DNA of 64,000 bases from Isurus oxyrinchus (GCA_026770705.1 JANJGN010000034.1:3162001-3226000); one strand, 5' to 3'; counted from the first letter of the stretch, positions 1,379-62,263 are shown. Translations and numbers: made by a program. Notes: generated by a model not told the origin, from the sequence alone.

Positions 1379-1405
1379 CTATCTTTGTGTCCTGTAGCAT
1401 TTTTT
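1379..1405 (-). CDS. Micro-exon A8, 27 nt, (E)KMLQDTKI
   Basis: tttgtttgtcactacag|AAAAAATGCTACAGGACACAAAGATAG|gtatga. Confidence 0.75.
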   Translation of the reverse strand, partial: KKCYRTQR

Positions 1406-2036
1406 CTGTAGTGACAAACAAAGTTGAATTAAAGAGCAACAAAAATACGGGTTGTAAAATACAACAATTCTACGTTTTAGATTTGCACATGAAACGAAAT
1501 CGCAGTTCAGCCCACTTGCCTGATTAAAATCTGATCCTAAAAAGGCGGAAGAAAATTTCACAGACAGCGCGTTTTTAGACATCAAGGACGAGAAACGTTG
1601 GTGTGGAAGTGGATTATAAATCAGAATACATTTCTTTTCCGGCTTGTGAAAGTGCCCCCAGAAACATGAAGTTGGTGAGATGGTAGAGGTGAAAAGCCAT
1701 TTACTGCACCGAAGAATGATTTTCTTCCCAGCACGCCAATTCTTTCCTCTGAAATATTGAGCCAGTCAATCTCCACCGATCCTTCCCTATAACACCAATC
1801 TCTCAGTTGTTACAGCGCGCTCTGCATGGGAATGTTCTTCCTCACATTCCCTACAGCTATTCTCATTAACTTGATATCTCTGCCACCCTTGTACTGATCA
1901 GATAATACAAGCGGTTTTTCTTTGTCCAATTTATCCAAAGGCGCCATAATATTTTACACTTCTATCACGTGTCTTCTTAATCTCCTTTGCTGCAAGGCGA
2001 AGCACCCCAGCGTTTCCAGCACTTGCATTTAGCTAA

Positions 2037-2106
2037 CCCCACACACACCAACCCCCCCACCCCCACCAACACACCCCCACCCCACCCCCCCCCCCCCCCC
2101 CCACCT
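2037..2106. repeat. C-rich/poly-C tract (G-rich on the minus strand; shorter in copy B ~36622-36660)
   Basis: Direct reading; explains the poly-Pro and poly-Gly ORFs. Confidence 0.85.
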
Positions 2107-2199
2107 TCCTGGAGCCAGCGTGGTATATCCCTGCTGCAAACTTTAAAGGACGCACATCCTTCCGAAAATGTGGTGACGGGAATTGAACTCAAGGCCCCA

Positions 2200-2470
2200 G
2201 TAGGAGATTTACTAAAGCTTCAAGAAATTTCAGCAGCAATTCCAAACTACTTTTACCCAATGCCTTTATTTACGAAGCAAGGTATTCCATATGCATTGCT
2301 TATCACACTCTCAGAATGCCCGGCCACCTTCTAAGATCGATGCACATGCGCCCCACTACCCTCTGTTCTCGTGCACACTTTAGAATTCTGCTATTCAGAT
2401 TGCATTGCCCCTACGCACATTTTCTGATAGAATCAGACACCTAACACTCCTCTACAATAAACAGCATACA
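2200..2470 (-). mobile_element. Highly decayed CR1-type RT fragment (copy B ~36760-37030)
   Basis: Remnant ...CCCACTACCCTCTGTTCTCGTGCACACTTTAGAATT...ACCTAACACTCCTCTACAATAAACAGCAT resembles antisense CR1 ORF2; boundaries approximate. Confidence 0.4.
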
Positions 2471-11155: not shown

Positions 11156-11191
11156 CTGTGTCTGCAAGAGCCTGCTTCACCTTGGCCAGCT
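11156..11191 (-). CDS. Micro-exon A7, 36 nt, (E)LAKVKQALADT
   Basis: tttttctttctttcgctcag|AGCTGGCCAAGGTGAAGCAGGCTCTTGCAGACACAG|gtaaat. Confidence 0.85.
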
Positions 11192-12589
11192 CTGAGCGAA
11201 AGAAAGAAAAATATCTTCAGTGGTTAGAAGCTCAATTAAATGAATGAAACAAAGAAAAGAGTGTCACAATTGGATGTGCTAGAAACTTCCGTTATCTCAG
11301 TGACTGTCCGTTTCATATCGCACTTCATATCCAGTTCCTTTAATGAAGATGGGTGGAGCAGACAATAGACAATTGCAGCAGTGGAATTTCTAGTGTCAAT
11401 TTGGATAAACAGAATTACATCGAATGCATAAAAGAGAAACTGCATTCGGCCACATTTTTGACGTCACAGCTAATGCTGCACAAAAACCTATTGATAATTT
11501 ATTCGATCCGAGTTTAAGCAGCATAATGTTTCTGGTCGTTTATCCCTCATTCACTTATCTAGCAGCCAAGTAAGTGCGCCTGTGCTAATCGCCTCGGCTC
11601 CTGACAGTAACCAAATTCACATTTCACTTCATTTTAAGGCAATATCTATGTTCCTTGAACTCGCATTCTCTTCATATGCAGTAAAGTTCATAATAATAGT
11701 TACAATTCTTGTTATCTCCCATGTGGGTTGATATCTGTTTTACATTTGCATTGTCAATAAGGTCATAATTAAAAGGAATGCATTTCAGTGAACCACCGCA
11801 TTCATATTATCTGCTTGAAATCGAGAATCAAATTGATTTATTTCATGCAAGGCCAATAAGAATGAGCGAAAAAAGTTATTTCGTTATCCCTACCTTTCTC
11901 CGTTCCAATGGGCTTCTCATTTAAGATTAAAATGAGAATTCAACATATGACAGAGAGACCGGGGCTAACAAATGCTTTCCTGGCCATTCTAAAAATGCCG
12001 GTGCTATTGCTTTCAAAACACATAAATATTGAATTCGATGCATAACAGCTCGTCGATGAAATTACACAACTATCACGTTAAAACATATTTGATTTTCTAC
12101 CCAGTGAATTTGTCAAACTTATTCGCTATTTGTTGCATCCAGCTGTCTGGACTGAGAAGATCCGTGACAATATCCAACAGCAATATTCCATCGAGCAGCC
12201 TGGTTCTCGGCAAAATGTTGGGCAAAGGTTTCGCTGGTGGAGACCATTTCATTATTTGCTTACATGTTCCTTGCGGTTGGTAGTCAGGGTCTGGGGAGCC
12301 AGAGGGTCTGTTATTCGCTGCAGAATGCTCAGCATCTGATCTACTCGTCCAGCACCTGCATTAGTTTGCAGGAATAATTCAGACCATGTCAATGCAAAAT
12401 GCATCATGTCAACGGTGCAATTTTAAATTACTTAACTACATAATTATCATGTCTCCCTCTCCCCCAACCCTTGATATCCTTGTCGCTCTCATATGTAAAT
12501 AGTATATAAAACCATTCTCAATAAATTTGTTAATTAAATTATTGGCTTGACATAAAATCTAAACTAAGTCATTAATATTCTTTATTATA

Positions 12590-12840: not shown

Positions 12841-12844
12841 CCTA

Positions 12845-14005: not shown

Positions 14006-14032
14006 CTTGGGGATTCCCACCTCCATCGAGTT
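14006..14032 (-). CDS. Micro-exon A6, 27 nt linker, (K)LDGGGNPQ
   Basis: ttttcctcatcccttgcag|AACTCGATGGAGGTGGGAATCCCCAAG|gtaaag. Confidence 0.75.
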
Positions 14033-15177: not shown

Positions 15178-15204
15178 TGCATTTCAGCTTAAGATCCTCC
15201 AGTT
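15178..15204 (-). CDS. Micro-exon A5, 27 nt, (E)LEDLKLKC
   Basis: tttttctttag|AACTGGAGGATCTTAAGCTGAAATGCA|gtaagt. Confidence 0.85.
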
Positions 15205-15873: not shown

Positions 15874-16855
15874 AAACTTTTAAATACATAAGCAGTGAGA
15901 GAGATGGTTGAGTGGCCCATTTGTTAACAATGTGACGAGAATTTAAATCCAGTAACCCACATTTCTGTGAATCATTTTTTGTTCAGACTGACGTAAGGTT
16001 GTTCATTTCTCCCTCTTTTCCCCTGAAATTTAGCAAACGTCCAATAAACCTTTGGATCTGCATCTTGCTTTGTCAAAGCTGTTCGTTCGAGATTTCCAGA
16101 TCATACAAGAAATGATGCACAATGCAAAGCGCGCTTATCAAGTCATGAGACATCATTTGAGATACCATTAGATGGCCTGAATCTAGAGTTAAAATGCAGC
16201 ATTCACAAACCTTCTTGCCCCTTTCTTTTGTTACCCGGCATACCATCTCTTGGTCTGCATATTTTACAAGCATGATTCTGTAACATCTGCACCAGTGCAT
16301 CATAGGTCCCTAGGCCCAGTAATCCCCTCATAATTGAAAGTTGGGCATACACGAATGTTCCATAAACCTCGCCTCATTGATAGTATTTTACAGTGAAAGT
16401 CAGTGCAGAAAGCACTTAGATAGAAAAAATGGAAAGACCCCATTAAAGAAATAAAGTCACAGTCTATTCAAGGATGTCTAGCGATGAGCAACAGAGGTAC
16501 CTTTCACCACAGCAACGATATATACTACTTAGGCCAATTTAATCATCAGCATATGGAAATAATTGTTTTATGTTTATCCAACAGAGGGCGGTGGTGAGGA
16601 GTGACTGAAGTATTCTGGGGAAGTCACCGCAGCCACCGCGACTCAGGAGGGAATCGAGGAGGACCCACTGTCAAATAAAGGAATAGCCCTAAACATTACA
16701 TTGCTGTAGTTTTCCCATCCCTCCCTCCTCCTCACACCTAAAAAAAATGGAGAGAAAGGAAGAGGCAGTGTCTTCAGGAGTGCACCAGACCTGCGATGGA
16801 CACTCTTCTGTAAGTGTATTTTAAAGTAAAAGCAACTGGTTGGTGAGTATATCCT

Positions 16856-17053
16856 GGGAGCAGACTCGGAGGGAGGAGTACTGGAGCCGTGAGTATAAAT
16901 TTAGTTTACCTCGGGGATTTGCGGCCTTGTCTCCATGGGCCAGACTTGGGAGGAGGAGTACCAGAGCTGTGAGTATAAATCTAGCTTACCTCTGGGATTC
17001 GCAGCCTAGTGTCTAGGGAGCAGACTCACAGGGAGGAGCATAGGAGTGGTGAC
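16856..17053 (+). repeat. ~80-bp tandem repeat in the CR1 5'UTR (2 full units plus a partial)
   Basis: GGGAGCAGACTCGGAGGGAGGAGTACTGGAGCCGTGAGTATAAATTTAGTTTACCTCGGGGATT.. units start at 16856, 16937 and 17016. Confidence 0.85.
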
Positions 17054-20000
17054 TTGGGGGCTCAGAGTTACTGACGTCAAAAATGGAAAAGTGACTTCAC
17101 AGGAAAGCTGTGACCTGATTGGCTGGTAGGAAATCTACACCAAATTTGAAAAAAAAAAGCACTGCAAACTTAATTAATAAACTAATTATAGAGTTGGCTG
17201 GGAAGGGGATGTGCCGTAGCAGTACGATTTGGGGGGTCGCGGATCCCATTGCGAGCCGCACTGACTACATCTGCAGGAAGTATTGGTTACTGGAGGAACT
17301 CTGGCTCAGAATTGATGGGCTGGTGTCCGATCTCCAGATGCTGTGACACATCTTGGAGGGGGAGAGGTACCTGGGTGCTTTGTATGAGGAGGCGGTCGCA
17401 CCCGGTAGATTAAGAACCTCATGTCCGGTCAGTGGTCAGGGTCAGCAGGGTGTGACTGCAAGTGGGGCACGTAAAGGAATCCTGTTTTCAGTCCAACAGG
17501 TAGAAATACTTGCTCCCTGTATGGATGAGGAAGACACTTGCAGGGAGTATGAGCCTGCTGACTACGGCACCGTGTCACAGGAGGCCATTCAAGAGGTGAG
17601 AACAAAAAGACTAGTGGTAGTTGTAGGAGATTCTATAATTAGTGGAATTGATAGCTTCGTTTGTAAGCAGGATCAAGAGTCCCGCTTGGTATGTTACCTG
17701 CCCTGTGCCAGGATGAGGGATATCTCTGTCTGGCTTGAAAGGATATTGGAGAGGGAGGGGGATTTTCCACTTTTTTGTTCCATGTCGGGAAAAATAACAC
17801 AGCTAAGACTAGGAAAGGGGACATTTTGGAGATTATCAGGAAGTAGGAAATAAATTAAAGAACAGGTCCTCAAGGGTTATAATCTCTGGATTACTACCCG
17901 AGCCACGTTAAAATTGGCATAGGGCTGCAAGAATAAGGGAAGTAAATACGTGGCTGAAGAAGTGGTGTGTGAAAGAGGGTTTCCATTTCATGGGGCTTTG
18001 GCATCAGCATTGGAATGGGCGGGATCTATACTGTAGGGATGGTCTCCACCTGAACCGGTCTGGGACCAATGTTCTAGCGGAAAGAGTAAGTAGGGTGGTC
18101 AACAGCACTTTAAACTAGAAAGTGGGGGAGGGGGGGGGGGTGCATAAAACCCAAAGAATTATGAGTAATGGGAAACAAAGCAGCACGTTAGCATATGGGG
18201 TGGGGTGGGGGGTTGGATTCAACTTCATAGAAAATTCTGAAAAAAACTGAAATGAAAGGAGAGCCCGAGAGAGGCTCGTAAAGCCTCCAGAACACGAAAT
18301 AGGATAGAGTGTTTGGAAAGGGCTAGGAATCTAACTTCAAGCATATGAGTTAAAGGGACAACAATGAGAACAGAGACAGAAAATACAGGACTGCAGGTCT
18401 TGTGTCTGAATGCACGCAGTATACGAAATAATGTAAATGAGCTTCTGGCACAGATTGAAATTGGCAGGTATGATGTGATGGGCATCATAGAGACATGGCT
18501 GAAAGGGGATCAGGACTGGGAGACAAATATCCAAGGCTATGCATCCTATCGAAAAGATAGGTAGGTTGACAGAGCGGGTGGGGTTGGTTTGTTAGTAAGA
18601 AATGAAAGTAAACCGAGCACAAGAAAAGTTGTAGGGTCACTTGATGCAGAATCGGTCTGTGTCGAGATGAGGAATGGCAAAGGTAAAAAAAAACATAATG
18701 GGAGTCATGTACAGGCCTCCGAACAGTAGTCAGGATGTGGTGCACAAGATACACCAGTGGATGGAAAATGTGTGTAAGAAAGGCAATTTTACAGTAATCA
18801 TGGGGGATTTCAATATGCAGGTAGACTGGGAAAATCAGGTTGGCAGTGGAACCCAAGAAAATGAATTTGTGGAATTTCTACGAGATGGCTTTTTGTTGCA
18901 GCTTGTGGTGGAGCCTACTAGGGAACAGGCAATTCTAGATTTATTGATGTGTAATGAGGCAGATTTGATAAGGGAGCTTAAGGTGCAGGAATCTTTACGA
19001 GGAAGCGACCATAATATGATAGAATTTACCCTGCAATTTGAGAGGAAAGAGCTGGAATCAGATGTAACGGTATTACAGTTGAATAAAGGGAACTACAGAG
19101 GCATGAGGGGGGAGCTGGCCAGAATTGACGGGGAGATGAGCCAGGTTGGAAAGACAATGGAGTAATTTGGGAGACACAGCAAAAATTCATTCCTAGGAAG
19201 AAGAAGCATACTAAAGGGAGGAGGAGGCAACCATGGCTGAAAAAGGATGTAAGGGACAGCATTATAACTGAAGAGAAAACATACAATGTGGCGAAGAGCA
19301 GTGTGAAACCAGGGGATTGGGAAGCTTACAAAGACCAACAGAGGACAACTAAAAAAAGAAATAAGGAGGGAGAAGTTTAAATATGAGGTAAGCTAACCAG
19401 TAATATAAATGAAGATTGCAAGAGTTTTTCTTAGTTACATAAAGTGTAGGGATGAGGCAAAAGTGGACATTCGGCTGCCAGAAAATGACGCTGGAGAATT
19501 AGTAGTGGGGAATAAAGAAATGGTAGAGGAACTAAATATGTACTTTGCGTCAGTCTTCACAGTGGAAGACACGAGTGACATCCTCAAAGATCAAAAGAGT
19601 CGGCGGGCAGAGGTGTGTATGGTGGCCACTAACAGTGAGAAGGTGCTAGGAAAACTGAAAGGCCTGAAGGTGGCTAAAACACCTGGACCAGATGGATTAA
19701 ACCTCAGAGTTCTGAGGGAGATAGCTCAGGAGATAGTGGAGGTGTTTGTGGCGATCTTTCAGGAATCACTGGTGTCATGGCGGATCCCAGAGGACTGGAA
19801 AATCGCTAATGTAACCCCCCTGTTTAAGAAGGGAGTGAGGCAAAAGATGGGAAATTACAGACTGATTAGCCTGACCTCCGTTGTTGGTAAGATTTTACCG
19901 TCCATTATTCAGGATGAGCTTTCGGAATACTTGGAAGTGCATGGTAAAATAGGGCAAAATCAACATGCTTTCAATCAGGGGAGGTCATGCCTCACAAATC

Positions 20001-45707: not shown

Positions 45708-45743
45708 CTGTGTCTGCAAGAGCCTGCTTCACCTTGGCCAGTT
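45708..45743 (-). CDS. Micro-exon B7, 36 nt, (E)LAKVKQALADT
   Basis: tttctttcgctcag|AACTGGCCAAGGTGAAGCAGGCTCTTGCAGACACAG|gtaaat; 1 synonymous change vs A7. Confidence 0.85.
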
Positions 45744-48111
45744 CTGAGCGAAAGAAAGAGAAAGATCTTTAGCGGTTAGAAGATCAATTAAATAAATAAA
45801 ACAAAGAACAGATTGTCACAATTGGATGTACTAGAAACCTCTGTTATCTCAGTGACTGTTTCAATTCGTACTTCATATCCAGTTCCTTTAATGAAGATGG
45901 GTGGAGCAGACAATAGACAATTGCAACAACATATTTGTTACTGATAGCTCTGGAGTCGAATTTGACACTTGCAATTTGGACAAGCTGAATTACTTCGAAT
46001 GCATAAAGAGAAACTGTCCATTCGGCTCACATTTGGACGTCACAGCTACTGCTTCACAGAAACCTATTGATATTTATTCGATCCGAGTTGAGAAGCACAA
46101 TATTTCTACTCGTTTATCCGTCATTCACTTTAGTAGCATCCAAATAAATGGCCCTGTGCTAATCGCCTCGGCTCCTGACAATAACTAAATTCACATTTCA
46201 CTACACGTTCAGCCAATATCTATTTTCCTTGAACTTGCACTCTCTTCATTTCAATAAACTTAATATTAATAGTTGCAATTCTTGTTAACTCCCATGTGGG
46301 TTGTTATCTGTTTTATGTCTACATTTTCAATAAGGTTTCATAATTAAAAGGAATGCATTTCAGTGAAATATCCACATTCATATTATCTGCTTGAAATCGG
46401 GAATCAATTTGATTTATTTCATGCAATGCCGCTAAGAATGAGCAGAAAACAGTTATTTTGATATCGCTACCTTTCTCCGTTCCAATGAGCTTCTCATCTA
46501 AGATTAAAATGAGGATTCAACATATGACAGAGATCGGGGCTAATAAGCGCTTTCCCAGCCATGCTAAAAATTCCAGTGCTATTGCTTTCAAAACACATAA
46601 ATATTGTAGTCGATGCATAACAGCTCGTCGACGAAATAACAAACTATCACGGTAAAATATAATGGATTTTCTACCCAGTGCATTTGCCAAATTTATTAGC
46701 TATTGGGTGCATCCAGATGTCTGGACTGATAAGATCCGTGACACTATCGAACAGCAATATCCCATCTAGCAGCCTGGCTCTCAGCAAAATTTTGGGCAAA
46801 GGTTTCGGAGGTGGAGACCATTTCATTATTTGCTTACATATTCTTTGCGGTTGGTAGTCAGGGTCTGGGGAGCCAGAGAGTATGCTACTAGCGGCAGAAT
46901 TCTCAGCATCTGAACTACTCGTCCAGCACCTGCATTAATCTGCAGGAATAATCCAGACCACGTCAATGCAAAATGCATCATGTCAACGGGGAAATTTTAA
47001 ATTATTTAACTGCATAATTATCATGTCTCCCCCTCCCCCACCCCCTCGATGTCCCTCTCCCTCTCATATGTAAATACAGTATGGAACCATTTTCCATAAA
47101 TGTGTTCATTAAATTATTGGCTTTGCATAATATCTAAACTAAGTCGTTAATGTTCTTTATTATATGGGAAAAGGAGCTGCATTAGCAGATTATACTACTT
47201 GTCGAAGCTGCTCCACCATTCAATGTCGCCTGGTCCTCTGCCATGGCTTCAATTTCCTTCCCGCTGCATATACCTCTTGATATCAATTGAGAGCAAAAAT
47301 CTCTCCATCTCAGTTTTAAATATAATCAACTCTAAATTATAAGCATCCGATTGAATGTCGAAATAGAAAGAATTACAGCACTCTGAAAGGGGACATAGCT
47401 CCTCATCTCAGAACTCCCAAGGTATCAACAAGGCAATAAAGCTATTTGCCAGTGGCTGAAGATTTTCCTCATCAGTACCACGGCGTTACGCACACTTTAT
47501 ACATCACAGCTGTTGGACTCGGTTTAATGGCCTAGCCATATTTTTATCTTCACTACAGAAGGATGTGAAAGGTTGAAATTTCTAAGAAAACAAGCACAAA
47601 GATGTCCACCATCAAAATACACTATTCAGATGTGTGTTTTAAACTCTCCAGTCGCCTGGGTGGGTGAGGTTCTAACATCTCTAAAGAAGCTCAGAAACAT
47701 CCAGGACAGAAATGTCAGCTTGATCGGCACATATGACGCCAGTTCAAAAAAGTAGTGACTCCTTCCAACTATGATCAGAGCCTGCGGTAGATTTTATCAT
47801 ATGCAAGCACTGCAGTACCTCACCAACCTTCCTTCAAGACCTCCTTGCAACACAGATATCTTCACCAATAGAGGGGCAAAGACAGCAGGCGCATGGCAGC
47901 ATCATCGCATGAAAGTTCTGTGCTGACACACACACAGAAGCTACCCTGAGGAACTAAATCACGATTCGTGCACTATCACTGCCTTAAAATCTGTTCAAAA
48001 CAGGAATACATGTGCACAGGCAGCAAAACGATAGCAATGATTCAAGAAGACTCGCAATTTTGACCTTCACTGCAATGTTGAAATCCCACAGGATTATAAT
48101 GATGATCATGG

Positions 48112-48182
48112 TGATACTACTACTACTAATACTACTACTAGTAGCAATAGTACTACTACTACTACTACCTATAATAATAATT
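48112..48182. repeat. (TAC/TAA)n microsatellite, longer than in copy A (~13543-13592)
   Basis: Direct reading. Confidence 0.85.
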
Positions 48183-48595
48183 ATCTCCCCCGTTAATTAT
48201 AGCACAGTGGCAACAAATGAGCTCGATGTTTGATTATCTAAATTTTGCAGTTTGGTCAAGCCAAACTGTCATGTGTCATACCATGAGACCTCAGTATTAC
48301 AATATATTGATAGTTGGTCTTATGATGGGGATGAACGATAATTTCTCTACTCCGACGTCTGCATATAAGTGTAATTTAATGCAGTGCGTTTGATAATGAT
48401 GTTAAACTCCTCGGAATTTCGTGCAGATCAATTCAGAAAGAATACACTGACAACTTCAACCATCGCATCCGTGATATTTCTTATTTTGTGGGAAAAAAAA
48501 CATAGTGCAATCTCTTCACCTAGATTAGCCCTCCGATTTAGGACGCTAGCCTTATCTATTTATGGGTCATTCAAAATGAGGCAATGGCGCTTTAC

Positions 48596-48622
48596 CTTGG
48601 GGCTTCCCAGCTCCATCGAGTT
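48596..48622 (-). CDS. Micro-exon B6, 27 nt linker, (K)LDGAGKPQ
   Basis: tttcttgcag|AACTCGATGGAGCTGGGAAGCCCCAAG|gtaaag. Confidence 0.75.
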
Positions 48623-49784
48623 CTGCAAGAAATGTGGAAAATCGAGTCAAATCATGGCCCTTAAATTCATTAAGAATCTGAGGAACAGACCTTGCCGATG
48701 ATAATAAACAATTCACTGAATGAATCTGAGCAGAGTTGTTATAACAAGTGTCTCTGATAGGTATGCATGAGCATGGACTATCTATCCTTATTATAAAAAT
48801 CGTCGTTCTAATTCATGGATTGTTAAACTGGGCCTCTGGCCCAATCTACAAAAATGCTTAGAAGGCCTGAGATGACGACATATGGGTTGAAAATGGCGAT
48901 CAACAAGAACACTGTCATGTGGATGGGTTACCCCGTGAATTAGCCGCATGTTGCTCTTAATTCCAATTAATCTTAACTACCAGTTGAAATTCTCTGAAGA
49001 TGTTACTTCTTTGAACTCCAGGTACGGCGTTCATTTCTGGGGATTTTGGAACATGGTGATGCCAGAAATTGCATAAATCTGTACTGTTCAAAAAATAAAA
49101 AGTAATCATAATCTTCTAGATGGGATGACATGTGCCCTGGCACAGAGTTCATATCATTTGCGTTTTAAAACGACAGGGCTAAATGTGATGTTGCCCATTA
49201 TAAATGGAACTCAAGAAGAAAACATTTGCCCATATATGGCTCTTTTCTTGGCCCTGGACATACCAATAGCCGATGTTTTACTTTTGCGGCAATTCTCCAG
49301 GTTTAGTTGAAGGTCCATGCAGAGCACCAACTGCAAGGGAGTGCAAAACCATCAATATCACACCGATCATACGTTACGTTCTCTGCCAAATATTCAGTTT
49401 TAATATATTTAATACCAATTATTGGATATAAGTTACAGAGAAATAGGTTTAGGATTGTTGCTCAAAATTACGTTCCCTCTGCAAGCACATTTGATTTCAG
49501 AAACTCGCTCAGCCATTCTGGCTGTGCATTGAATTAAATTTTTGAGAGACTGTGATTTTTGTTAGGAAAGTGATAATGACGAAAGGAACCTGGTTATCCA
49601 ATTATCCACGAAGGAGGCACGGAGACTTGATTTGCCACCTCCTGTTCCCATGAAGTCCATTATAATTAAAGGAAACAGGGAACTGTTAATAGAATACAGT
49701 AAGGTGCATCTGTGTGAGAGTGGGTGGGTGTGTATGGTGATGTTAGTATTTTGTGAGGGTGGCAGCTCGACTTTACAAACTTAC

Positions 49785-49811
49785 TGCATTTCAGCTTAAG
49801 ATCCTCCAATT
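49785..49811 (-). CDS. Micro-exon B5, 27 nt, (E)LEDLKLKC
   Basis: tttttctttag|AATTGGAGGATCTTAAGCTGAAATGCA|gtaagt; 1 synonymous change vs A5. Confidence 0.85.
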
Positions 49812-51203
49812 CTAAAGAAAAATGCAAATGCATCATGTTAAGCAAATTTAATCACTGGTAAGCTGTTTATTCGCTCTATTACAGAAAGCAACTGCCCACG
49901 CAGAATTTAAAATAAATAGAAAACCATCACAGGAGAAGTCGAGCCAGAACATTATTCAGCTTGTCCCGGCTTCATTCTTGTTGTCTCATTTATTCCCTCT
50001 CCAAACTTTTTGTTCCTGATCCTGCAATGTATTACATCGACGAATGTGTGCATTTGCGAGGATAAGCATCGTGATAAGAACCCTGGTGATATAACAATGT
50101 AACATTATTACTGACAATTAGTCCAATCACTATCAATGCGCTGGTAATTAGTAAGCTGGCTTCGCAATGAAAATATAAGGAATTCAGCTGGCTTGTCCTT
50201 AACTGTCCAAATAGTTCATCAATGATCAGAATATTAATGCGTTCGAAATCATGGTTCCATTATACAAAACTATGGTTAGAACGCATGCTGTCTTGTGGAG
50301 ATTTCTGAGCACCACTATTTATGGAGGATGCACTGCTTTTGGAGGGAGTGCAGTGCATTCTTATCAGCATGATAATTAAAGTTTAAGGGCAAAATCTTGC
50401 CCTTGTCGGGCAACCTGGGGCCGATCAGGGCTGGAAGGTGATTTCACGCTGGCCGGCCAATTAGCTAGCTAGATAGATAGAAAACTTATAAATACATAAG
50501 CGGTGAGAGAGATGGTTGATTTGCCCATTTGTTACCAGTGTGACGAGAATTTAAATCCAGAAACCCACATTTCTGTGAATCATTTTATGTTCAGACCGAC
50601 GTAACGTAGTTCATTTCCCCCTCTTTTCCTCTGAAATTTAGCAAACGTCCAGTAAACCTTTGGATCTACCTCTTGCTTTGTCAAAGCTGAGCTTTCGTGA
50701 TTTCCAGATCGTACAAGAAATGATGCACAATGCAAAGTGTGCTTATCAAGCCACGAGATATCATTTGAGATTCCATTAGATGGCCAGAATCTGGAGTTCA
50801 AATGCTGCATTTACAAACGTTCCTGCCCCTTTTGTTGTGTTACCCGGCATGCCATCTCTTGGTTTGAATATTTTACAAGCATGATTCAATAACATCTGCA
50901 CCGGTGCATCATAGATTCCGCGGCCTCATAATTGAACGTGGGGCCTACATATATGTTCCATGAAACTCGCTTCTTAGATAGTATTCTACAGTGAAAGTCA
51001 GTGCGGAAGGCACTTAGGTGCAAATAATGGTAATCCTCCATAAAAAAAAGTCTACTCAAGGATGTCTAGGAACGAGCAACAGACATTCCTTTCACCACAG
51101 CAACGATAAATACTACTTAGGCTAATGTTTAATGTGTAAAAGGAGCTGCATGTCCTATTTAATCATCAGCACATCACAATAATTATTTTATTTTAATCCA
51201 ACA

Positions 51204-54200
51204 GACGGCGTGGATGCGAAGTGACTGAAGCATTCTGGGAGAAGTCATCACAGCCACTGTGACTCAGGAGGGAATCAAGGAGGACCCACTGTCAAAGAAA
51301 GGAATAGCCCTAAACATTACATTGTTGTAGTGTTTCCATCCTCTCTCCTCTTCAAACCTAAAATAAGTGGAGAGAAAGTAAGGGTCAATGCCTTTAGGAG
51401 TACACCAGACCTGCGAGGGAGACTCTTCTGAAAGTGCATTTTAAAGAAAAAGCAGCTCGTTGCTGTGTACATCCTGCGGGCAGACTCGGAGGGAGGAACA
51501 CTGGAGCAGTTAGTATATATTTAGCTTACCTCGGGGATTCGTAGCCTTGTCTCCAGGGAGCAGACTTGCTGGGAGGAGCACCGGAGCGGTGAATATATAT
51601 TTAGCTTACCTCGGGATTTGAAGGCCTTGCCTCCAGGGAGCGAACTCAGAGGGAGGAGCACTGGAGCGGTGAGTACAAATCTATCTTACCTCAGATATGC
51701 GTGGCCTTGTCTCTAGAGAGCAAACTCAGATGGAGGAGCGGTGACCTTGCCGCACAGAGTTACTGACGGCAAAATTGACAACGTGAGGTCACATGAAAGC
51801 TGTGACCTGATTGGGTGTAAGAAATTTGCACCAAATTTGAAAAAAAAACTACAAAGTTATTTAATAAATTAATTATCTAAATAGAGATGGCTGGGCAAGG
51901 GATGTGCTATAGCTGTATGATTTGGGAGGTGGCAGATCCCATTGCAAGCCACAGTGACCAGATCTGCAACAAGTGTTGGCTGCTGGAGAAACTCTGGCTC
52001 AGAATTGATGGGCTGGAGTCCGATATCCTGATTCTGCGACACACTGGGGAGGGGGAGAGGTACCTGGGTGCTTTGTATCAGGACAAGGTCACATCAAGTT
52101 TAATTAGTACCTCATGTCCGGTCAGTGGTCAGGGTCAGCAGGGTGTGAATGCATTGAGACAGGGAGTGGAATCCTGTGTTCAAAAACAAAGGCACCTCAG
52201 CTCTTTCCCTTGTCCAACAGCTATGAGGTACTTGCCCGCGGTGTGGATGAGGAAAAGGGCTGTATGGAGGATGAGCCATTTGACTACGGCACCATATCAC
52301 AGGAGGCCATTCAAGAGGGGGGACTAAAAAGACAAGTCGTAGACGTAGGGAATTCTATAATTAGGGGAATTGATAGCTTGCTTTTTAAGCAGGATCAAGA
52401 GTCCCGCTTTGTATGTTACCTGCCCAGTGCCAGGGTGAGGGCCATCTCTGGCCAACTTGAAAGGATATTGGAGAGGGAGGGGGAGCATCCAGTTTTTGTA
52501 TTCCACGTCGGGACAAGTAACACAGCTAACACTAGGAAAGAGGACCTGTTTGGGGATTATCAGGAACTAGGAACTAAATTAAATAAGAGAACCTCAAGCG
52601 TTATAATCGCCAGATTAGTACCCGAGCCACGTTGGCTCAGAGACACAAGAATAAGGGAAGTAAACACATGGATAAAGGAAAAAGGGTTTCCATTTCGAGG
52701 GGCTATGGCAACAGCTTTGGAAAAGGTGCAGTCTGTACCATTTGGACTTTCTGCAACTTAACTGATCTGGGTCAAAAGTTCTAGGCAAAGGGAAAATAGG
52801 AAAATTCCAAGAAGTATGACTAATGCGAAACAAAGCCGCAGGTTGGCGTGTGGGAGTTTGGGGTGGGTGGCGGGGGGGGGGGGGAAGTAGTGGGGGGGTG
52901 ATTGGATTCAACTTCATGGAAAAAAAATGAAAAAACTGAAAAGAAAGGAGAGCCCAGGAGAGGCTATTAAAGTCTCAAGAATACAAAACAGGACAGAGTG
53001 TTTGGAAAGGGCTAGGAATATAACTTCAAGCACATCAGATAAAGGGACAAAAGTGAGAAAGGGGACAGAAAATGCAAAACTGAAGGTGTTGTATCTGAAT
53101 GCGCGCATTACATGAAATAAGGTAAATGAGCTTGTGTCGCAGATTGAAATTGGTAGGTATGATGTGGTGGGCATCACAGAGACATGGCTGAAAGGTGATC
53201 CGGACTGGGAGACAAATATCCAAGGATATACATCTTACCAACAAGATATGCAGGTTGACAGAGGGGTGGGGTTCCTTTGTTAGTAAGAAATTAAATTAAA
53301 TCGATAGCAAGAAAAGAAGTAGGATCAGATGATGCAGAATCTGTGTGGGTAGAGATGAGGAATGGCAAAGTTAAAAAAAAAGGTAAAATAAAACATAATG
53401 GGAGTTATGTACAGCCTCTGAACAGTAGTCAGGATTTGGGGCACAAGATACACCAGGAGTTAGAAAAGGTGTTTAAGAAAGGCAAAGTTACAGTAATCAT
53501 GGGGGATTTTATTATGCAGTTAGACTGGGAAAATCAGGTTGGCAGTGGATCCCAAGAAAAGGAATTTGTGGAATTTCTACGAGATGGCTTTTCAGAGCAG
53601 CTTGTGGAAAAAGCTGGCATAAGATGTAAGGGTATTACAGTTGAATAAAAGCAACTACTTAGGCATGAGGAAGGAGCTGGCCAGAATTGACTGGGAGATG
53701 AGCCAAGCAGGAAAGACATGGGAACAGCAAAGGCAGGATTTCCTGGGAGTAATTTGGGAGACACAGCAAAAATTCATCCCGAGGAAGAAGAAGCATACTA
53801 AAGGGAGGAGGAGGCAACCATGGCTGACAAGGAATGTCAGGGAAATTTTTATAACTGAAGAGAAAGCATACAATGCGGTGAAGAGCAGTGGGAAACCAGG
53901 GGATTGGGAAGCCTACAAAGAACAGAGAACAACTAAAAAAATAAATAAGGAAGGAGAAATTTAAATATGAGGATAAACTAGCCAGTAATATAAAAGAAGA
54001 ATGCAAGAGTTTTTTTAGATACATAAAGAGTAAAAGAGAGGCAAAATTCGCCATTGGGCCGCTGGAAAATGATGCTGGAGAAGTAGCAATGGGGAATAAA
54101 GAAATGGCAGAGGAATTGAACAGTTACGTTGCATTAGCCTTCACAGTGGAAGACATGAGTGACATCCCCAAAGTTCAAGAGAGTCGGCAGGCAGAGGTGT

Positions 54201-55810
54201 TTATGTTGGCCATTATCAGGGCTAAGGTGCTAGGAAGTTGAACGATCTGAAGGTGGCTAAATCACTTGGACCAGATGGATTACACCCCAGAGTTCTGAAG
54301 GAGATAGCTGAGGAGATAGTGGAGGCGTTCGTGGCGATCTTTCAGGAATCACTGGAGTCATGGAGAGTCCCAGAGGACTGAAAACTCGCTAATGTAATAT
54401 CCCTGTTTAAGAAGGGAGTCAGGCAAAAGATGATTAGCCTGTCCTCGGTCGTTGGTAAGATTTTAGAGTCTATTATTAAGGATGAGGTTTCAGAATATTT
54501 GGAAGTGCATGGTAAAATCGGGTAAAGTTAGCATAGTTTGAATTAGGGGCTGTCATGCCTGACCAATCTGTTAGAATTCTTTGAGGAGCTAACCAGTAGG
54601 TTAGACAAAGGAGAGCCAATGGATGTAATCTACTTGGACTTCTAGAAGGCCTTTGACAAGGTGCCACACAGGACGTTGCTCAGTAACATAACAGCCCATG
54701 GTGTTAAAGGCAAGGTACGCACATGGATAGAAGATTGGCATTCTTGCAGGAGGCAGAGAGTGGGGATAAGGGGGTCCTTCTCAACATAGCGGACGACGTT
54801 GGGTGGAGTTCTGCAGGGGTTAGTGTTGGGACCACAACTTTTCACTTTATACATTAATCATCTAGATGAAGGAACTGAGCGCATTCTGGCTAAGTTTGCA
54901 GATGCTACAAAGATAGCTGGAGAGGTAGGTAGTATTGAGGACGCAGGAGGCTGCATAAGGATTTGGACAGGTTAGGAGAATGGGTAAAGAAGTGGCAGAT
55001 GGAAGACAATGTGGGGCAGTGTGAGGTCATGCACTTTGGTAGGAAGAATAGTGGCATAGACTATTTTCTAAATGGACAGAGAATTCAGAAGAGCATTAGG
55101 AGTCCAGGTCCAGGGTTTTCATAAGATTAACTTGCAGGTTGAGTCGCTAGTTAAGAAGGCAAATGCAATGTTGGCATTTATTTCGAGAGGACTCGAATAT
55201 AAAAGCAGGAATGTGCTGCTGAGGATTTATAAGGCTCTGGTCAGACCACATTTAGGATATTGTGAGCAATTTTTGGCTCTGTGTTTCAGGAAGGAAGTGC
55301 TGCCCCTGGAGTGGGTCCAGAGGAGGTTCACGAGAATGATCCCAGGAATGAAAGGCTGCACGTGTGAGGAAAGTTTGAGCTCTCTGGAAATGTACTTGAA
55401 GGAGTTTAGAATGATGAGGGGGGATCTGATTGAAACTTACAGAATATTGAAAGGCCTGGATGAAGTGGACTTGGGGAACATTTTCCATTAGTAGAAGAGA
55501 CCAGGACCCGAGGGCACAGCCTCAGAGTAAAGTGAAGACCTTTCGGAACAGAGATGAGGATAAACTTCTTTAGTCAGAGAGTGGTGAATCTATGGAATTC
55601 ATTGCCACAGAAGCCTGCGGAGGCCAGGTCCTTGAGTATATTTAATACCGAGATAGATAGCTTCTTGATTTGTAAGGGGATCAACCACTATGGGTGACGG
55701 CGGGAAAATGTGGTTGAGAAACTTATCAGCCATGATGAATGGCGTAGAAGACTCGACGGGCCGAATGGCCTAATTTCTGCTCCTATGTCTTATACTCTTA
55801 TGGCCTTATG
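51204..55810 (+). mobile_element. Near full-length inactive CR1 LINE, copy B (same insertion duplicated with the block)
   Basis: Same flanks as copy A; ORF1 MAGQGMCYSCMIWEV..QICNKCWLLEKL; ORF2 remnants; ~135-bp deletion relative to A near 53608. Confidence 0.95.
51476..51745 (+). repeat. ~80-bp tandem repeat in the CR1 5'UTR (3 full units plus a partial)
   Basis: Units start at ~51476, 51556, 51636 and 51716. Confidence 0.85.
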
Positions 55811-56703
55811 TAAAAATTCAGCATTAAGAAGGTCCACTAATCTAATCCTAGGAATCATAACATTATATTTAACTAGAAAGAAAAATATGCCGTTGTGGAC
55901 AATCAGTGTGTGGTTCGTTACCTCTCAAGTTTTGCATTGTTAAGCTGAAGCTTGCCATCCCCCAAAGCTTTAACCTGTGTCCGAGTGTTACATCCGAGTT
56001 CTAAAATGGTTACGCAATCCGCCGTTTTCCTCATGATGAGTGTGGAAAACCAGCCATTGCTCCAATTGTAAAGGTGTCAAGTTCATACAGGATTATGTCG
56101 CTATTTCCTTTGCCTTCGAGAAACGCACAATTAAGATGAGGAACTGCCTCTCCCTCAGTACATTTCCAGATGCGGACCATTGAACCTCTATGGCTACGGT
56201 CAGGTCCAATTTCATAAAGCAAAAAGAAATGATTCACTTTTTAATAAGGAGGCATTCGTTCCATAAGGTGTGCCTCACTCTTAAGCTGATCTTGGACATT
56301 CAAAAATGCAACTTCACTAGCTTGAATAAGTTATTTCTACATTTCTAAATTATCTCCATCTAAAAAAACTGCTTATTCTGTTCACATGATTTGGTGATAT
56401 CTGCATCAGTGTTGGATACAGCATTGAGCCACTTAACAGGAAGAAATGCACGATTTCAAGAGGAAGACACACCAGCTCTTTGAGAGGTCGCAGGTTTGCT
56501 TAATAAGCGTCAACCATGCTAGAGATAATGTGGATCAATATTTCACATAAACTAGCAGTAAGCAAAACTCTGTCTCAGGGATCCTCTATATCCTAAACGT
56601 GGAAAAAAGTTACGATTTCCCTTTTACACATTTACAGTAATAATAATGGAAATGAATGGAACCACTTCTACACCTGCAAATATAATGACTGCTCGATATT
56701 TAC

Positions 56704-56730
56704 CTTTTTCCCTGTTACTCAGTCTTTGTT
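56704..56730 (-). CDS. Micro-exon B4, 27 nt, (E)QRLSNREK
   Basis: atcatcacag|AACAAAGACTGAGTAACAGGGAAAAAG|gtaaaa; identical to A4. Confidence 0.85.
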
Positions 56731-57422
56731 CTGTGATGATAAAGCCAGATAAAATGAGAAATATTGGAGGGCAAATCCGTTTTTGAGAAAGTTGAAACGT
56801 GTAATGTACAAATGTTAATAATGTAGAAATAGATCATCCCTGGGAGACCAGAATGTGCACTTTCTGCAGTCTGATATAATCCAACTTTGGTTTTCTCTCC
56901 CACTGAACTCTACAGGGCTGAATGTAAATGGCACCGTAGAGCAGTCACCATTGCCGATCTTTAGGCATCAGGTTAATTAGTTCTGCCCTTAACCATGTCT
57001 GGTATCAATATGAACCTTATCTATCGCCAACATGTTTGCCTATTAACTGCGCTTTGTAATTGCTTTTCCAAATGTTTGCTGCAACGCAAACCATTCAACA
57101 GTGTGCAAGGAATCGGAAACGTGCCACAGACGCAACGGCAGCTGGAATGTGCTTGGAATTCTGCAATTGCCAGTTGTGCTCACATCAAGGGAAGGAACAG
57201 CGTGCTCCATTATCTTCTCTAAGGGAAATTTGAGCAATCAACTAAAGGTTTTGGCTGTATTGCAGTATCGCCAGGAAACGTTCCCATGTGTACAATTGAC
57301 TTGCCTTAGTTTATTCATTGGTAATGAGTAACCCGCATCATAAACAGGCGGAGGTAAGGCAGATGTAACCAAATAGTAGACGTCAATTGGAATCGCATAA
57401 CAAACTTTTTCTTCCCTCATAC

Positions 57423-57458
57423 CTGAACGTTCCAGAGCACCCTTTACATTTTCCAGTT
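57423..57458 (-). CDS. Micro-exon B3, 36 nt, (E)LENVKGALERS
   Basis: tgctttcag|AACTGGAAAATGTAAAGGGTGCTCTGGAACGTTCAG|gtatga; 2 synonymous changes vs A3. Confidence 0.85.
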
Positions 57459-60400
57459 CTGAAAGCAGGCACAAAACCAAATACTTTATTCCAGGAACAT
57501 AATAACATCAGGTGCAATTATCTAAAACAAAGGATGCATTTGAAAAATATTTATTCAAGAATGTAATGAATACAAATGCGCGATATAGCCGATTGAATGT
57601 GCTTTAAGTTCAGTCACTTGTAATTATGAAACACAGTATCCAATTTAACACAGATAGTTCATCCCAGGTCATTAAAAAAAAACAGCTGTTTTTTTCCCCC
57701 TCATGTTGCAGTCCCTTCTTTTGTCAATATCCGTAAATCTGTTTCAGCTGGTTCCTGACTCTACCGACAATAGTAGCAACCTTTCATAATTACTCTTTCT
57801 AACAACTTTCCAGCTTTGCGCAGCTGTATCAAGTCTCCACTTAATAATCTCTTGTCCAATGGGAACAGCAGCAGATTCATTAGTCGACTCAGGTAAATTA
57901 AGTTCATCATCCCTGATCATTAGGTATGGACCTTTGTTGCACATTACCTAATGCCTCCTCATCCTTCCTATGGTGAAGGCTTCCCATGACTGAGCACAAT
58001 ATTGTCTTTGAGCCGAAAAAGTGTCTTATAGATGCTTTCACTTAATTTGTGCTCCTTGCCCATCTTTATAAACTCCGTAATCACAGATGCTTTATTCATG
58101 TATTTACCCCACACCCTCCACCCCCATGCATAACTTCAGCCATTTGTGCAGATAACTATGTCCCTCTGTTCCTGTGCCACCCTTCGAATTGTACCCGTTA
58201 TTATACATAGTTTCCCTCTTTATTCTGAACAATTGAATCACTTCAGGTTTCCTTGCATTAAATGTAATCGTCCACTATTCCACAAATTCCACCAGCCTAT
58301 CTATACCCCTTTGAAGTTCTCGTTATCGCCATCACCCTTTACTATATTTAGCAGTACCCTGCATACCCAAAAACTGTTAATTAATGTAAAGATGTCAGAG
58401 AAAATATTGTCGCTGACTAAGACGCCTGTTGAACTCCAGTATATTCCTTATCTACTTAGCTAAAAACTATCCTTCACCACTGCTCTCTTCTTTTTGCTAC
58501 TCAGTAAGATTTACATCTGCGCTGCTACTGCCCCTTTATTCATTGCAATATAATTTGCTTAATAAGCCTATTTTTGGCACTTTGTTAAATACTTTTTTCA
58601 AGTCCATGATCACTACTGCAACCATGTTAGAATCATTGACGTTCTTTTGTCTCATCAAAATACTCAAACAATTTATTTGAACATGATTTAGTTAAACAAC
58701 AAAATAGGTGCTGTCCTTTCTGAAAATTTTCCAGTGATCATTAATTTCTTTCGCAATTATCATTCCTGAAAACGTTCCCTTCACTGTGGTTGAAAAAGCT
58801 GGCTTGCACGTAGTGATACAATCCTTACAGCATTCCAACAAGTGCTTAAAATATGCAGTTTCCCAATTATCTGCACTGCCTTTGTAGCTAATCAGGTTTG
58901 ACAGTTGGTGGCTGGCACCTCTACACTTGCCCATCTTGCGTCCCTCGCCATCAGTGGATGCATAAGCTGTCCCTAAGACTCAGCAACTTTAAATATAGTC
59001 TAACTCTCAACTACCTTCTGTTTGTCATTTTTTTTTTGCATCTAGTATCTCAATAACCCCAAACTCCACTCTGCATCACATAAGGTCTCATGGAACCTGT
59101 TGCAACTGCACATAATTTGGGACTTGGAATGATCTTCTACTATCATTTAGGAATAAACAAGCAGTTCCTGTTATAGAACTACCATGCATAATCACAATTT
59201 TGCATTGCCATGTTTTGGCTTTTAACAGGGAACATTGCTATAATGTTTGTCGTTAATGTTGTTAAATACCATGAATAGAGCAAACAGAAAATACTTTTGC
59301 GAATAAACAGCTTAAGTGAAAGTGGAATATAACAAACAAGCTACTACTTGTGTACACAATTCATTTCTTTAACTATCACTGTGTTAAACTCTTATATTTC
59401 CTTGAAGGTAGAAGAATAAGCGGGCACATTTGGCCAAAGTTTTCATGATGAGGTAGGTAAGGAAAACGTTTTCCTGCAGTTGCGATTACAAGTTTCCAAC
59501 AGCTGAAAATAATTATATGAAATTCGGCTGTAAGTCATTCATGATGGGAGGTGGTGATGTAGTATTAATGTCCTTCCAGTATTCCATGGATTCAGGCTAA
59601 GGCTTTGGGGGGCATATGTTCAAATCCCACCATGATTGCTAGTGGAATGTGCATTCAATTAATTAACTCGAAGCACGAGTAGGCCATTCAGCCCGGGGAG
59701 CCTGTTCCCTCATTCAAAAATTTCATGGCTCATCATACACTTCTATATATTTTTCTCACACTACCCCGAGATACCTTTATGACATTTGTATTTAGGAACC
59801 TCTGAATCTCTACTAAAAACAAGCATACTCGATGATGTTGATTGTACGGTCTGCTGGGGTGCAAGACTGCAAAAACCTACATCACTCTCAGTGAGAAAAA
59901 CAATCTGATCTAGGTCCAAATGCGGTGAACATTCGTTGCACTCCCTATTTGGCAGTGCTATAATTCCGGAGTATAAGGGGAACACACCTACTCACAATAG
60001 TCCAGCTGTGGCCTAATGTTCTGGAATCTTTAATTGAAAGCTAGTATCAATAATGGTGACCACGATGCTGTCATCGATTTTTGTAAAATACCATCCTGTT
60101 CACGAATGTGATGTAGGGAAGGAAAATCTTCCGCCCTCACATGGTCTGGCCTAAGTGTTATTCCAAACTCACAGCAAATGGTAGTTGGTTATCATTGATA
60201 TTTGTTTACAAAGTAAGACCACAACAATATGGTTAACTCCTCACTGTCCTCTGAAATTGCCGAGAAATCTACTCAGTTCAATTGCAATTAGGGTAGTGCG
60301 ACCAATGTTAGCCCTGCCAGTGATGCCCACAATACATCAAAGAATGATGACGGTTATGATGGTGATGGTGATGATGATGATAATTACGATGGTGGCGATA

Positions 60401-61547
60401 ATAATACTAATAATAGTATTATTCTTATTAATAATAATAATAACAATATATCTCCTTGAATGGCTGAACATTCTTGAGGAGTAAAATGACTGTCCATTGT
60501 TCCTATGTGCCAATGTTTCTATGAGCTCAGTGCAGTAACATCGGAATCGCCATAACTATCAAGCTTACATTCGAGGGGAAAGAAAAAGTGCAGAGCTCAA
60601 TGTTTGTGTGGATGGTTATTTGTCAACTGGCAACGTGCGAAAATGAGCATCATCCAAAATCATTAATTGATGTATTTTAAAATTGTTCTGGAATCTATCC
60701 GCTTCCCAAAAACGAGAGTTTATAGTGCCTGCACTCGACACCACCCCAAAAAATGTACTGGCATTGTGGATTGGAATAAATTAATCAAGTTCACGTCTTA
60801 GTTTTTTCTTTCCATATGCCCAATGACGAAACCACCGGTAGAATTAAGTACTGTCTCTCCTTCAGGACATTCCCTGGTGCGGTCCATTCGTAGGCATCCT
60901 GTTTCTTTCAAGTGTCAATTCATAAAGCAGGATATAACTCTCAAATGAGAGGGTATCATTGGACGCTCCGTCAGACTATCAGAATGTTGAGTTGGTTTTA
61001 AAAGTCCCGAAATTTTCTTTACCACTGGTGGCAAAGCCCCTGCCTCCTGCTCCACTTTTCATTATTCCACCTGTATGATTTGCTACATCTGCATTGATGC
61101 ACATTGGTGCCAGGTTCCCATTAATTCACACATCCTTGTAAATACATCATATACACTTCATCTGATCTGCATAAATACACATAGGAACCCTATTCTAATA
61201 TCACTTTGGGAGCCTAGTAGTCACAAAGAATACAGGAGGACAACAAGAATGCATTTAATCATCTGAAAGGAAAATAAGGATGTGTTATAAACGCCGAGCT
61301 TGTGAGCAATGTCAATGACGTTATTTCTTAGACTGTGGCATGTGGAGTTAGCAGTGCCGTATGCAAAGTCAATTAGAAGTATTTCCGTAAAATGAGTGAG
61401 ATACATAAATTTACCTCTCTACCCATTAAACTGGAAGATGGAATGTGAAAGTTAAGATTTTTTTATTAACTTGTACAAACTTAACAATTGAGAATAATTG
61501 AAACCAACTGTACAATGACAAAAATAATATTGGTTTGATGTCCATAC

Positions 61548-61574
61548 CTTTTTCCTTGCTAGCCAGTTTTTTTT
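61548..61574 (-). CDS. Micro-exon B2, 27 nt, (E)KKLASKEK
   Basis: taatcacag|AAAAAAAACTGGCTAGCAAGGAAAAAG|gtatgg; identical to A2. Confidence 0.85.
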
Positions 61575-62227
61575 CTGTGATTATAAGTCCAGAGATAAAA
61601 TGTGGTGAAGTGTTGTAGGATACTTCATATATGTTAGGCTATGCAGTTATAGTTAGAAAGAATGAATAGGATGTAAATGAGTCCTGTTAGAGTGTTTCTT
61701 TAGGAAATTAATATCAACCATGATGTAACCTATAGGTCGATAAAATCCAGAGTTCAAAAGGAGCATGGTTGCTCTCATTGGGTACGGTCTAGTACAACAA
61801 GATCCTGGTGCACTCTTATTTATGCATCGATCCATCGAGATGTGTCAAAGCAGTTGTCAGTGGTTTAGAAAGCTATACTGTTGCAAGCACAAAAACTGTT
61901 TGGCATAAATGCCGGTACTGACAGTTCCACAAAAGAATGAAGGCTGTGTGTCACACAATTCTTAAACGAACAGGCACCAGGCGGGTTAAAATTGAACATG
62001 CTACAATTACTCATATTGGAGAGAGACAAGATCATATGTTCAATGATATATCAGTATATTCCTGGCTTTTCGTTGTTTGCAGCAAATGTGATATGCAATC
62101 AATTGAGACATCAGTAGCATTGCCTATATTTCAGAATATTTGGAAAACAAGCATTTGACGCAGAACAGATAGACATTAGCCAAAAAAAGCACTAAAGTAC
62201 AATGAAAGACAGGCCTGTTCCACTCAC

Positions 62228-62263
62228 CGGCAATCTCCAAAGCAGCTTTTAGCTCATCTAAAC
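62228..62263 (-). CDS. Micro-exon B1, 36 nt, (G)LDELKAALEIA
   Basis: ttctcttag|GTTTAGATGAGCTAAAAGCTGCTTTGGAGATTGCCG|gtgagt; differs from A1 by 2 synonymous changes. Confidence 0.85.

Follow-up and report, generated by a model that had tools for sequence, protein, structure and literature searches.

Why have the very small exons of a tandem duplication stayed more alike than the introns around them, and what sort of gene do they serve? The question is raised by a stretch of 64 kilobases (kb) from the 4.98 Gb genome of Isurus oxyrinchus (GCA_026770705.1), namely bases 3,162,001-3,226,000 of contig C34 (JANJGN010000034.1), which as a whole is referred to here as the window; coordinates outside 1-64000 are window-equivalent. 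An initial annotation of this DNA had listed eight pairs of duplicated micro-exons and proposed that purifying selection acts on both copies. We present evidence that the exons have indeed been constrained since they were copied, and that the duplication, of 34.5 kb, probably lies inside a single gene of about 164 exons and 722 kb that would encode a coiled-coil rod followed by a B30.2/SPRY domain.

A head-to-tail duplication in the window

Comparison of the window with itself by BLAST reveals a direct duplication, the pieces of which are 77-87% identical. When flanking DNA is included, the repeat unit measures 34.5 kb and its copies stand head to tail (1084-35669 against 35667-69916), copy B running 5.9 kb beyond the end of the window. 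In a global alignment, copies A and B differ at 4,356 of 33,600 aligned columns (13.0%). The unit holds 11 exon pairs, each 11-exon block encoding 108 residues. The two copies and their exons, with lengths in nucleotides (nt), are as follows.

1084-35669, minus strand: copy A, the 3' copy of the intragenic duplication (self-BLAST and global alignment)
35667-64000, minus strand: copy B, the 5' copy, continuing to window-equivalent 69916 (self-BLAST and global alignment)
62228-62263, minus strand: copy B exon 1, 36 nt, phase 1; an alternative 30-nt acceptor is possible
61548-61574, minus strand: copy B exon 2, 27 nt
57423-57458, minus strand: copy B exon 3, 36 nt
56704-56730, minus strand: copy B exon 4, 27 nt
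49785-49811, minus strand: copy B exon 5, 27 nt, with Cys at its end
48596-48622, minus strand: copy B exon 6, 27 nt, Gly/Pro linker
46471-46497, minus strand: additional exon candidate of 27 nt that scores weakly for splicing; only copy B keeps both AG and GT
45708-45743, minus strand: copy B exon 7, 36 nt
35963-35989, minus strand: copy B exon 8, 27 nt, last before the A/B junction
34957-34983, minus strand: additional exon of 27 nt, the first in copy A, with its partner at 69192-69218; one silent difference
34314-34340, minus strand: additional linker exon of 27 nt; copy A keeps the AG, and the copy B partner at 68455-68481 has AA
28084-28119, minus strand: copy A exon 1, 36 nt
27376-27402, minus strand: copy A exon 2, 27 nt
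23063-23098, minus strand: copy A exon 3, 36 nt
22338-22364, minus strand: copy A exon 4, 27 nt
15178-15204, minus strand: copy A exon 5, 27 nt
14006-14032, minus strand: copy A exon 6, 27 nt, linker
11894-11920, minus strand: copy A partner of 46471-46497, acceptor changed from AG to AA; probably skipped
11156-11191, minus strand: copy A exon 7, 36 nt
1379-1405, minus strand: copy A exon 8, 27 nt

Copies A and B are consecutive blocks inside one far larger exon array and are not two copies of a gene. Two separate genes were considered and rejected, there being no B30.2 exon, start or other class of exon between the copies. An assembly artefact, in which two haplotypes would have been set side by side, was likewise rejected, on the 13% divergence and on the presence of both copies in a related organism. 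Exon 1 (28084-28119 and 62228-62263) has two in-frame acceptors six bases apart, giving 36 or 30 nt, which are kept in both copies.

Reverse-transcriptase-like fragments at 17100-21000 and 51200-56200 belong to what we take to be a decayed retroelement, which, being common to both copies, is older than the duplication. An 80-base-pair (bp) tandem repeat stands before it (16852-17038 and 51480-51739). A pair of 465-bp repeats, inverted or direct, is found outside the main alignment (109-573 and 32496-32963, 89% identity) and probably represents the insertion of a short mobile element later than the duplication.

Divergence of exons and introns

The eight exon pairs of the initial annotation, 243 nt in total, were all found where it had placed them, on the minus strand, flanked by AG and GT and in phase 1. 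Its hand count of 12 substitutions was reproduced (12/243, 4.9%), as was each of the six silent changes and five replacements that it had itemised; the twelfth change is a seventh silent one, CTA/CTG in exon 8, giving seven silent changes and five replacements. Its spot check of about 10% intron divergence was a little low, the measured background being 13.1% over 32,742 aligned columns, or 12.5% for the part inside the window. Relative to the intron rate, the exons show a clear deficit of changes (binomial P 2e-5), and they are readily distinguished from random gap-free intronic windows of the same size, for which a mean of 30.9 differences is expected (200,000 draws, P 2.4e-4); intronic windows no more than 1 kb from each exon give an expectation of 27.9 differences against the 12 observed (P 3.2e-4). 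Upstream of the exons divergence reaches the background level by 80-160 bases, and downstream of them by about 7; this confinement of conservation argues against long conversion tracts. That the exons of the window have been under constraint since the duplication is well supported by their sequence.

The changes within these eight pairs fall mainly on silent sites. The proportion of differing silent sites (pS) is 0.114-0.135, equal to the intron rate, and that of differing replacement sites (pN) is 0.027, with a ratio of replacement to silent change (dN/dS) of 0.18-0.23 (Fisher P 0.005-0.013). Among the nine window pairs that are intact, 8 of 13 changes are silent against 2.9 expected (P 0.0035). 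If one copy had been neutral, about 12-14 replacements would be expected against the five seen (P 0.014-0.021 for eight pairs, 0.005-0.008 with the ninth); these are too few for one freely drifting copy, so both copies are probably constrained. Polarising the changes by means of older paralogues in the array worked at few silent sites only. The intact frames and splice sites suggest that both copies are translated.

The probable host gene: a micro-exon array and its B30.2 exon

Exons of the same type continue for hundreds of kilobases on both sides of the window. They were identified by scanning with a splice-site matrix trained on clear exons of the same array, stop-free frames being a condition of the scan that was tested separately. 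From +270,000 to -450,000, the only sizes to rise above the opposite-strand control were 27 nt (92 against 4) and 36 nt (59 against 3), hits of 21 nt being at background (4 against 3 on the opposite strand). In-frame stops were present in 5 of 151 hits of 27 or 36 nt, against 3 of 7 on the control strand, and exons that are off-size or stop-bearing occur at background level. The scan yielded 146 exons, and manual selection at lower thresholds, together with a profile search, supplied 18 more, giving 164 exons with 4,983 nt and 1,661 codons. The resulting array is on the minus strand, consists of phase-1 exons of 27 and 36 nt and extends over 722 kb from its first exon to a terminal B30.2/SPRY exon.

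This terminal exon, at C34:2,708,632-2,709,152, has an open frame with a stop codon and matches Pfam SPRY (E 4.6e-15), Pfam PRY not being reported; its best solved relative is the B30.2 domain of BTN3A1 (E 2.3e-26, residues 2-160). All joins among the 164 exons and the B30.2 exon are free of junction stops. We infer that the array is spliced to the B30.2 exon in one mRNA, and the approximately 164 exons are likely to form a single 722-kb gene, with a predicted product of about 1,830 amino acids (aa). The array peptide contains 17% Lys, 16% Glu and 16% Leu, and its 12-residue exons are hydrophobic at positions 2, 5 and 9 in 96, 86 and 96%, respectively, of 56 exons; one exon of 12 residues and one of nine together make three heptads. 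From its sequence the array is likely to specify some 1,660 residues of coiled-coil rod, with the B30.2/SPRY domain after them. A coiled-coil rod rises by about 0.15 nm per residue, at which the full rod would measure about 250 nm.

The first exon of the array has an ATG at its third base, and between it and the next B30.2 exon upstream lies a gap of 44 kb (268,468-312,118). No CpG island was found in this gap, and none of its 120 minus-strand frames of at least 58 aa matched an immunoglobulin (Ig), RING or B-box domain, the absence of Ig applying only if the gene starts within the gap. A search there for transmembrane segments found no AG..GT phase-1 exon (60-400 nt) exceeding 1.62 in 19-residue hydropathy, a test that weak or differently phased exons could escape. 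Two sequencing runs, presumed to be of RNA, gave depth over 45600-62400 that lay mostly in repeat-rich bins, with no exon-to-exon joint among the joints listed. When sequencing runs were searched with the B30.2 exon, no RNA run was listed as carrying it, a result that has no bearing on expression. Elsewhere, the exon at -33447..-33473 apparently has a GC donor, and tandem repeats with a period of about 25 bases form an array of 16.5 kb at -494371..-477806, 25 kb downstream of the terminal B30.2 exon.

A second duplication in the same array

The same gene contains a second tandem duplication, of about 72 kb and 85-89% identity, at -333944..-189193 (C34 about 2,828,056-2,972,807), which by its sequence is of similar age to the first. 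Here 23 candidate exon pairs were listed. Four that scored low were dropped before the count: in three of them one copy carried either a stop or a defective splice site, and in the fourth the sites were weak in both copies. The 19 remaining pairs differ at 33 of 585 positions, against 11.3% in introns (P 1.6e-6), and all their splice dinucleotides are intact, a statement that holds only if the four dropped candidates are false. In these pairs pS is 0.065-0.079 and pN 0.052-0.054, with introns at 0.113, and radical or nonsense changes number 5 against 10.9 expected (P 0.014). When the two duplications are pooled, 7 such changes are seen against 15.3 expected (P 0.004), 2 of 120 splice dinucleotide columns have changed against 14.4 expected (P 7e-5), and differences fall at 8 of 168 positions at exon edges and at 38 of 687 inside exons. 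As DNA, then, the exons of both duplications appear firmly constrained.

Additional exons and the copies in a related organism

Beyond the eight pairs first described there are three others, one of them intact and two in which an acceptor has been lost in one copy each. The earlier statement that all AG/GT dinucleotides are intact holds for the eight pairs then chosen, and for a ninth, and fails for two of the 11, where AA replaces AG. Among 146 exons, only the linker at 34314-34340 ends in T, and the exon that follows it (28084-28119) belongs to a small minority starting with neither AA nor AG, so that the join made by the linker is free of a stop; were the linker joined to the second exon after it, with the first skipped, a TAA stop would arise.

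In two runs from a related organism, each of the 30 bins of copy B was covered by contigs like it, the listed pieces being 3-8% different. At 34230-34381, three of four runs from this organism gave two contigs at about equal depth, one for each copy, the fourth giving a B-like contig only. To judge from its divergence the organism is another species, and the presence of both copies in it indicates that the duplication predates the split. The change at position 34341, in the linker acceptor, was found in none of the four runs, AG being kept in both copies there, and the acceptor loss at 68455-68481 would be recent, or an allele, or an assembly error. Near the linker exon, five sites are alike in both copies of the related organism where the copies in the window differ.

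Relatives and comparison systems

The B30.2 domain of this gene falls in a clade with those of four neighbouring loci and of database models from Scyliorhinus, Narcine, Leucoraja, Cetorhinus and Callorhinchus (23 rows; Shimodaira-Hasegawa-like approximate likelihood ratio test, SH-aLRT, 100), as placed by a quick tree of 58 of 178 domains without bootstrap, in which the clade stands on a long branch. This grouping points to a shark or ray as the source of the window. The cartilaginous-fish models in this clade carry the names TRIM39-like, zinc-binding protein A33-like, TRIM69-like and TRIM58, and examples are XP_038668997.1, XP_069775384.1, XP_038672306.1, XP_042191566.1 and XP_055510696.1. 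Although such names imply RING or zinc-binding domains, these proteins are without them: their architecture is a coiled coil with SPRY, which is the sole Pfam family in all six scanned, no RING or B-box was found by motif in the database proteins of the clade or by Pfam in the six, and no Ig was found by Pfam in the six. RefSeq models of these relatives join the coil to the B30.2 domain, and in three species RefSeq isoforms differ by single cassettes of nine residues (P0154/P0155, P0157/P0025, P0159/P0028), which fits true splicing of 27-nt exons in this family. A single-domain search for longer relatives returned one teleost protein with multiple B30.2 domains.

Several known systems share parts of this design. 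The chicken BG genes also encode a long helical tail from many tiny exons that vary in number, with alternative splicing and signs of selection on the tail, according to two papers (PMC5938342, PMC4046983). By the same papers their exons are of 21 nt, some of 18 or 24, with 13-36 per gene in the B12 haplotype, whereas here they are of 27 or 36 nt and number about 164; BG proteins, moreover, have an Ig-V domain and a transmembrane exon and lack B30.2, whereas here B30.2 is terminal and no Ig or transmembrane exon was found in the upstream gap. Butyrophilins such as BTN3A1 have heptad repeats followed by a C-terminal B30.2 domain, as here, but in PMC12841164 they are given IgV, IgC, a transmembrane segment and few heptads, of which the first three were not found here. 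TRIM proteins with B30.2 (TRIM21, TRIM7, TRIM58, pyrin) are soluble and likewise combine a coiled coil with a C-terminal B30.2 domain; however, N-terminal RING and B-box domains are expected in them, whereas none was found in the gap upstream or in the relatives scanned, and the coil here is split into micro-exons. TRIM coiled coils are also far shorter than the one predicted here. The guinea-pig enterophilins are soluble proteins with a long leucine zipper or heptad rod and B30.2, and are not known to have Ig or RING; they resemble the predicted product in this layout, but are mammalian and far shorter. By the features tested, this gene is not a member of the BTN, TRIM or BG families. In the databases the family appears only as short models named TRIM39-like or A33-like, and literature searches, whose coverage left out most subscription journals, returned general papers and none on this family.

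Neighbouring arrays and B30.2 loci

The B30.2 exon upstream of the gap (+312,119-312,661) lies on the same strand and has its own micro-exon array of at least 68 hits, which covers at least 325 kb and still continues at +641,668. This upstream array contains short older repeats, with periods of about 5 and 10 kb and 64-71% identity. Three further B30.2 exons of the same clade are found on the plus strand at C34:4816506, 6395824 and 7496447, with micro-exons upstream of each, so that all five related B30.2 exons on this contig have upstream micro-exons of their own; the loci at 6395824 and 7496447 are near-identical in exon order. Linkage of this contig with the major histocompatibility complex (MHC) was not seen, all 12 MHC class I hits being on contig C21 and a class II beta search being empty genome-wide. 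The same contig C21 carries, at 82-118 Mb, a very large cluster of SPRY exons with most of the 150 scored hits.

Proposed mechanism

All exons of the array are in phase 1 at both ends and a multiple of three in length, and any block of them could be copied in frame by unequal crossing-over, a process proposed, in PMC5938342 and PMC4046983, for tail expansion in chicken BG genes and the zipper protein. We propose that the 11-exon block was copied before the split from the related organism and that both copies were kept in the same message. The 11-exon and 19-exon blocks would have been copied at about the same time and retained, giving a longer coiled-coil stalk. Later selection would have acted on splice sites and exon sequence, probably including enhancer motifs, which would occupy much of a 27-36-nt exon flanked by introns of kilobase length; on the helix it would have acted more loosely. 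A nine-residue exon could be lost through a single acceptor mutation without frameshift, as may have happened once per copy so far. The product would be soluble and probably dimeric, with ligand-binding B30.2 heads at the end of a long stalk, and may be likened to the cytoplasmic half of a butyrophilin or to a chicken BG tail; by this analogy, our best guess is that the rod serves as a spacer or scaffold for the head.

Weighing the evidence

A number of observations weigh against this account. The list of exons is shaped by training on the same array and by the stop-free condition, and the scan also gave, at about -393044, an exon-like 27-mer with AG/GT, an in-frame stop at its end and a score just over threshold, which is possibly a decayed or poison exon. 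Within the window the test rests on 12-13 changes only, acceptors have gone from AG to AA once in each copy (11894-11920 in copy A, 68455-68481 in copy B), and the splice dinucleotides of this duplication taken alone show 2 changed columns out of 44 where 5.8 would be expected (P 0.06). The second duplication shows no silent excess (7 silent codon changes against 6.7 expected), its dN/dS of 0.64-0.84 is not significantly below 1 (Fisher P 0.22-0.44), and replacements alone do not reject neutrality of one copy (P 0.32-0.43); pooling the data leaves a weak excess of silent changes (15 against 9.7, P 0.045). No first exon or promoter was identified in the 44-kb gap, and the database models examined have 200-945 aa against the 1,830 or so predicted here.

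Since the silent bias of the window is not repeated in the second duplication, the low divergence of the exons cannot be assigned to amino-acid selection alone. The proposal of purifying selection in both copies accordingly stands as regards constraint on the exons but not as regards amino-acid selection as its sole cause. The share of constraint at the protein level either differs from one part of the rod to another or looks too large because the sample in the window is small, and much of the constraint probably acts on splicing signals. PMC2374712 reports that, in genomes rich in introns, sequence close to exon ends is constrained in relation to splicing. A stronger version of this idea, which we consider a genuine contender though the less probable one, is that the exons are conserved mainly as splicing signals, with a loosely constrained helix and a window dN/dS of 0.2 that is partly small-sample luck. 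It would be compatible with translation of both copies and would alter the target of selection. It draws on that published precedent and on the silent sites of the second duplication, which change as slowly as its replacement sites, but it sits poorly with the window, where silent sites diverge at the intron rate and silent changes are in significant excess, with the pooled depletion of radical and nonsense changes, and with differences that are not concentrated away from exon edges.

Other alternatives concern what is made from the array and where the gene ends. The blocks might be alternative cassettes, one block or a subset being used per message, so that isoforms and not length would have been added. 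The symmetry of the exons, by which any subset is in frame, the nine-residue cassettes of the RefSeq isoforms and the loss of a different acceptor in each copy would all suit this, but the isoform differences compared are single exons or different starts and not blocks, the TAA stop created by skipping the exon after the linker fits ordered inclusion, and no mechanism was seen for an exclusive choice between 35-kb blocks; we judge it improbable. We are equally doubtful that transcription runs through this array and the upstream one as a single unit, which would exceed 1.1 Mb, offer a choice between two terminal B30.2 exons and have any exons for Ig, transmembrane or RING segments beyond the upstream limit of the sequence read. 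The two share strand and phase, no first exon, CpG island or domain exon was found in the gap between them, and the upstream array is still running where the sequence read ends; against this, each of the five related B30.2 exons on the contig has micro-exons of its own, the database relatives start with Met in the coiled coil and have SPRY as sole Pfam family, and an ATG stands at the third base of the first array exon. It is very unlikely that one copy or the whole gene is dead and that exon similarity stems from gene conversion or old constraint. Two acceptors have been lost, and the five sites alike in both copies of the related organism could reflect conversion, yet the B30.2 exon shows no damage, exons of other sizes or with stops do not exceed background, and conservation is limited to exons and splice sites with silent sites spared, which conversion tracts would not produce. 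We retain, as the likely reading, a 34.5-kb duplication inside one long rod-and-B30.2 gene.

Significance

Slower change in duplicated exons than in introns is no surprise. The unusual part is the gene around them, with about 164 micro-exons over 722 kb, which the examined database models represent only as short, misnamed proteins. What the window adds is a record of growth by block duplication, with a matched replicate and two acceptor losses, the two duplications of similar age being the nearest to a functional test that sequence alone affords. The retention of 118 of 120 splice dinucleotide columns across 30 duplicated exon pairs argues that the array has been selected as a spliced unit. 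Tentatively, and with less assurance than for the gene itself, we suggest that it represents an undescribed class of cartilaginous-fish genes, ranging in size from hundreds of kilobases to a megabase, each encoding a soluble B30.2 sensor on a stalk of about 250 nm made from at least 150 exons of 9 or 12 codons. Stalk length would itself evolve, increased stepwise by tandem duplications of 35-72 kb retained entire and reduced by single acceptor mutations, and the present array is perhaps joined with the upstream one into more than 1.1 Mb with a choice between two B30.2 heads. Such genes would offer a natural system in which to study how the spliceosome chains more than 100 exons of 27-36 nt across kilobase introns, and one in which to ask whether the length of a B30.2 stalk is selected, as has been argued for the tails of chicken BG.

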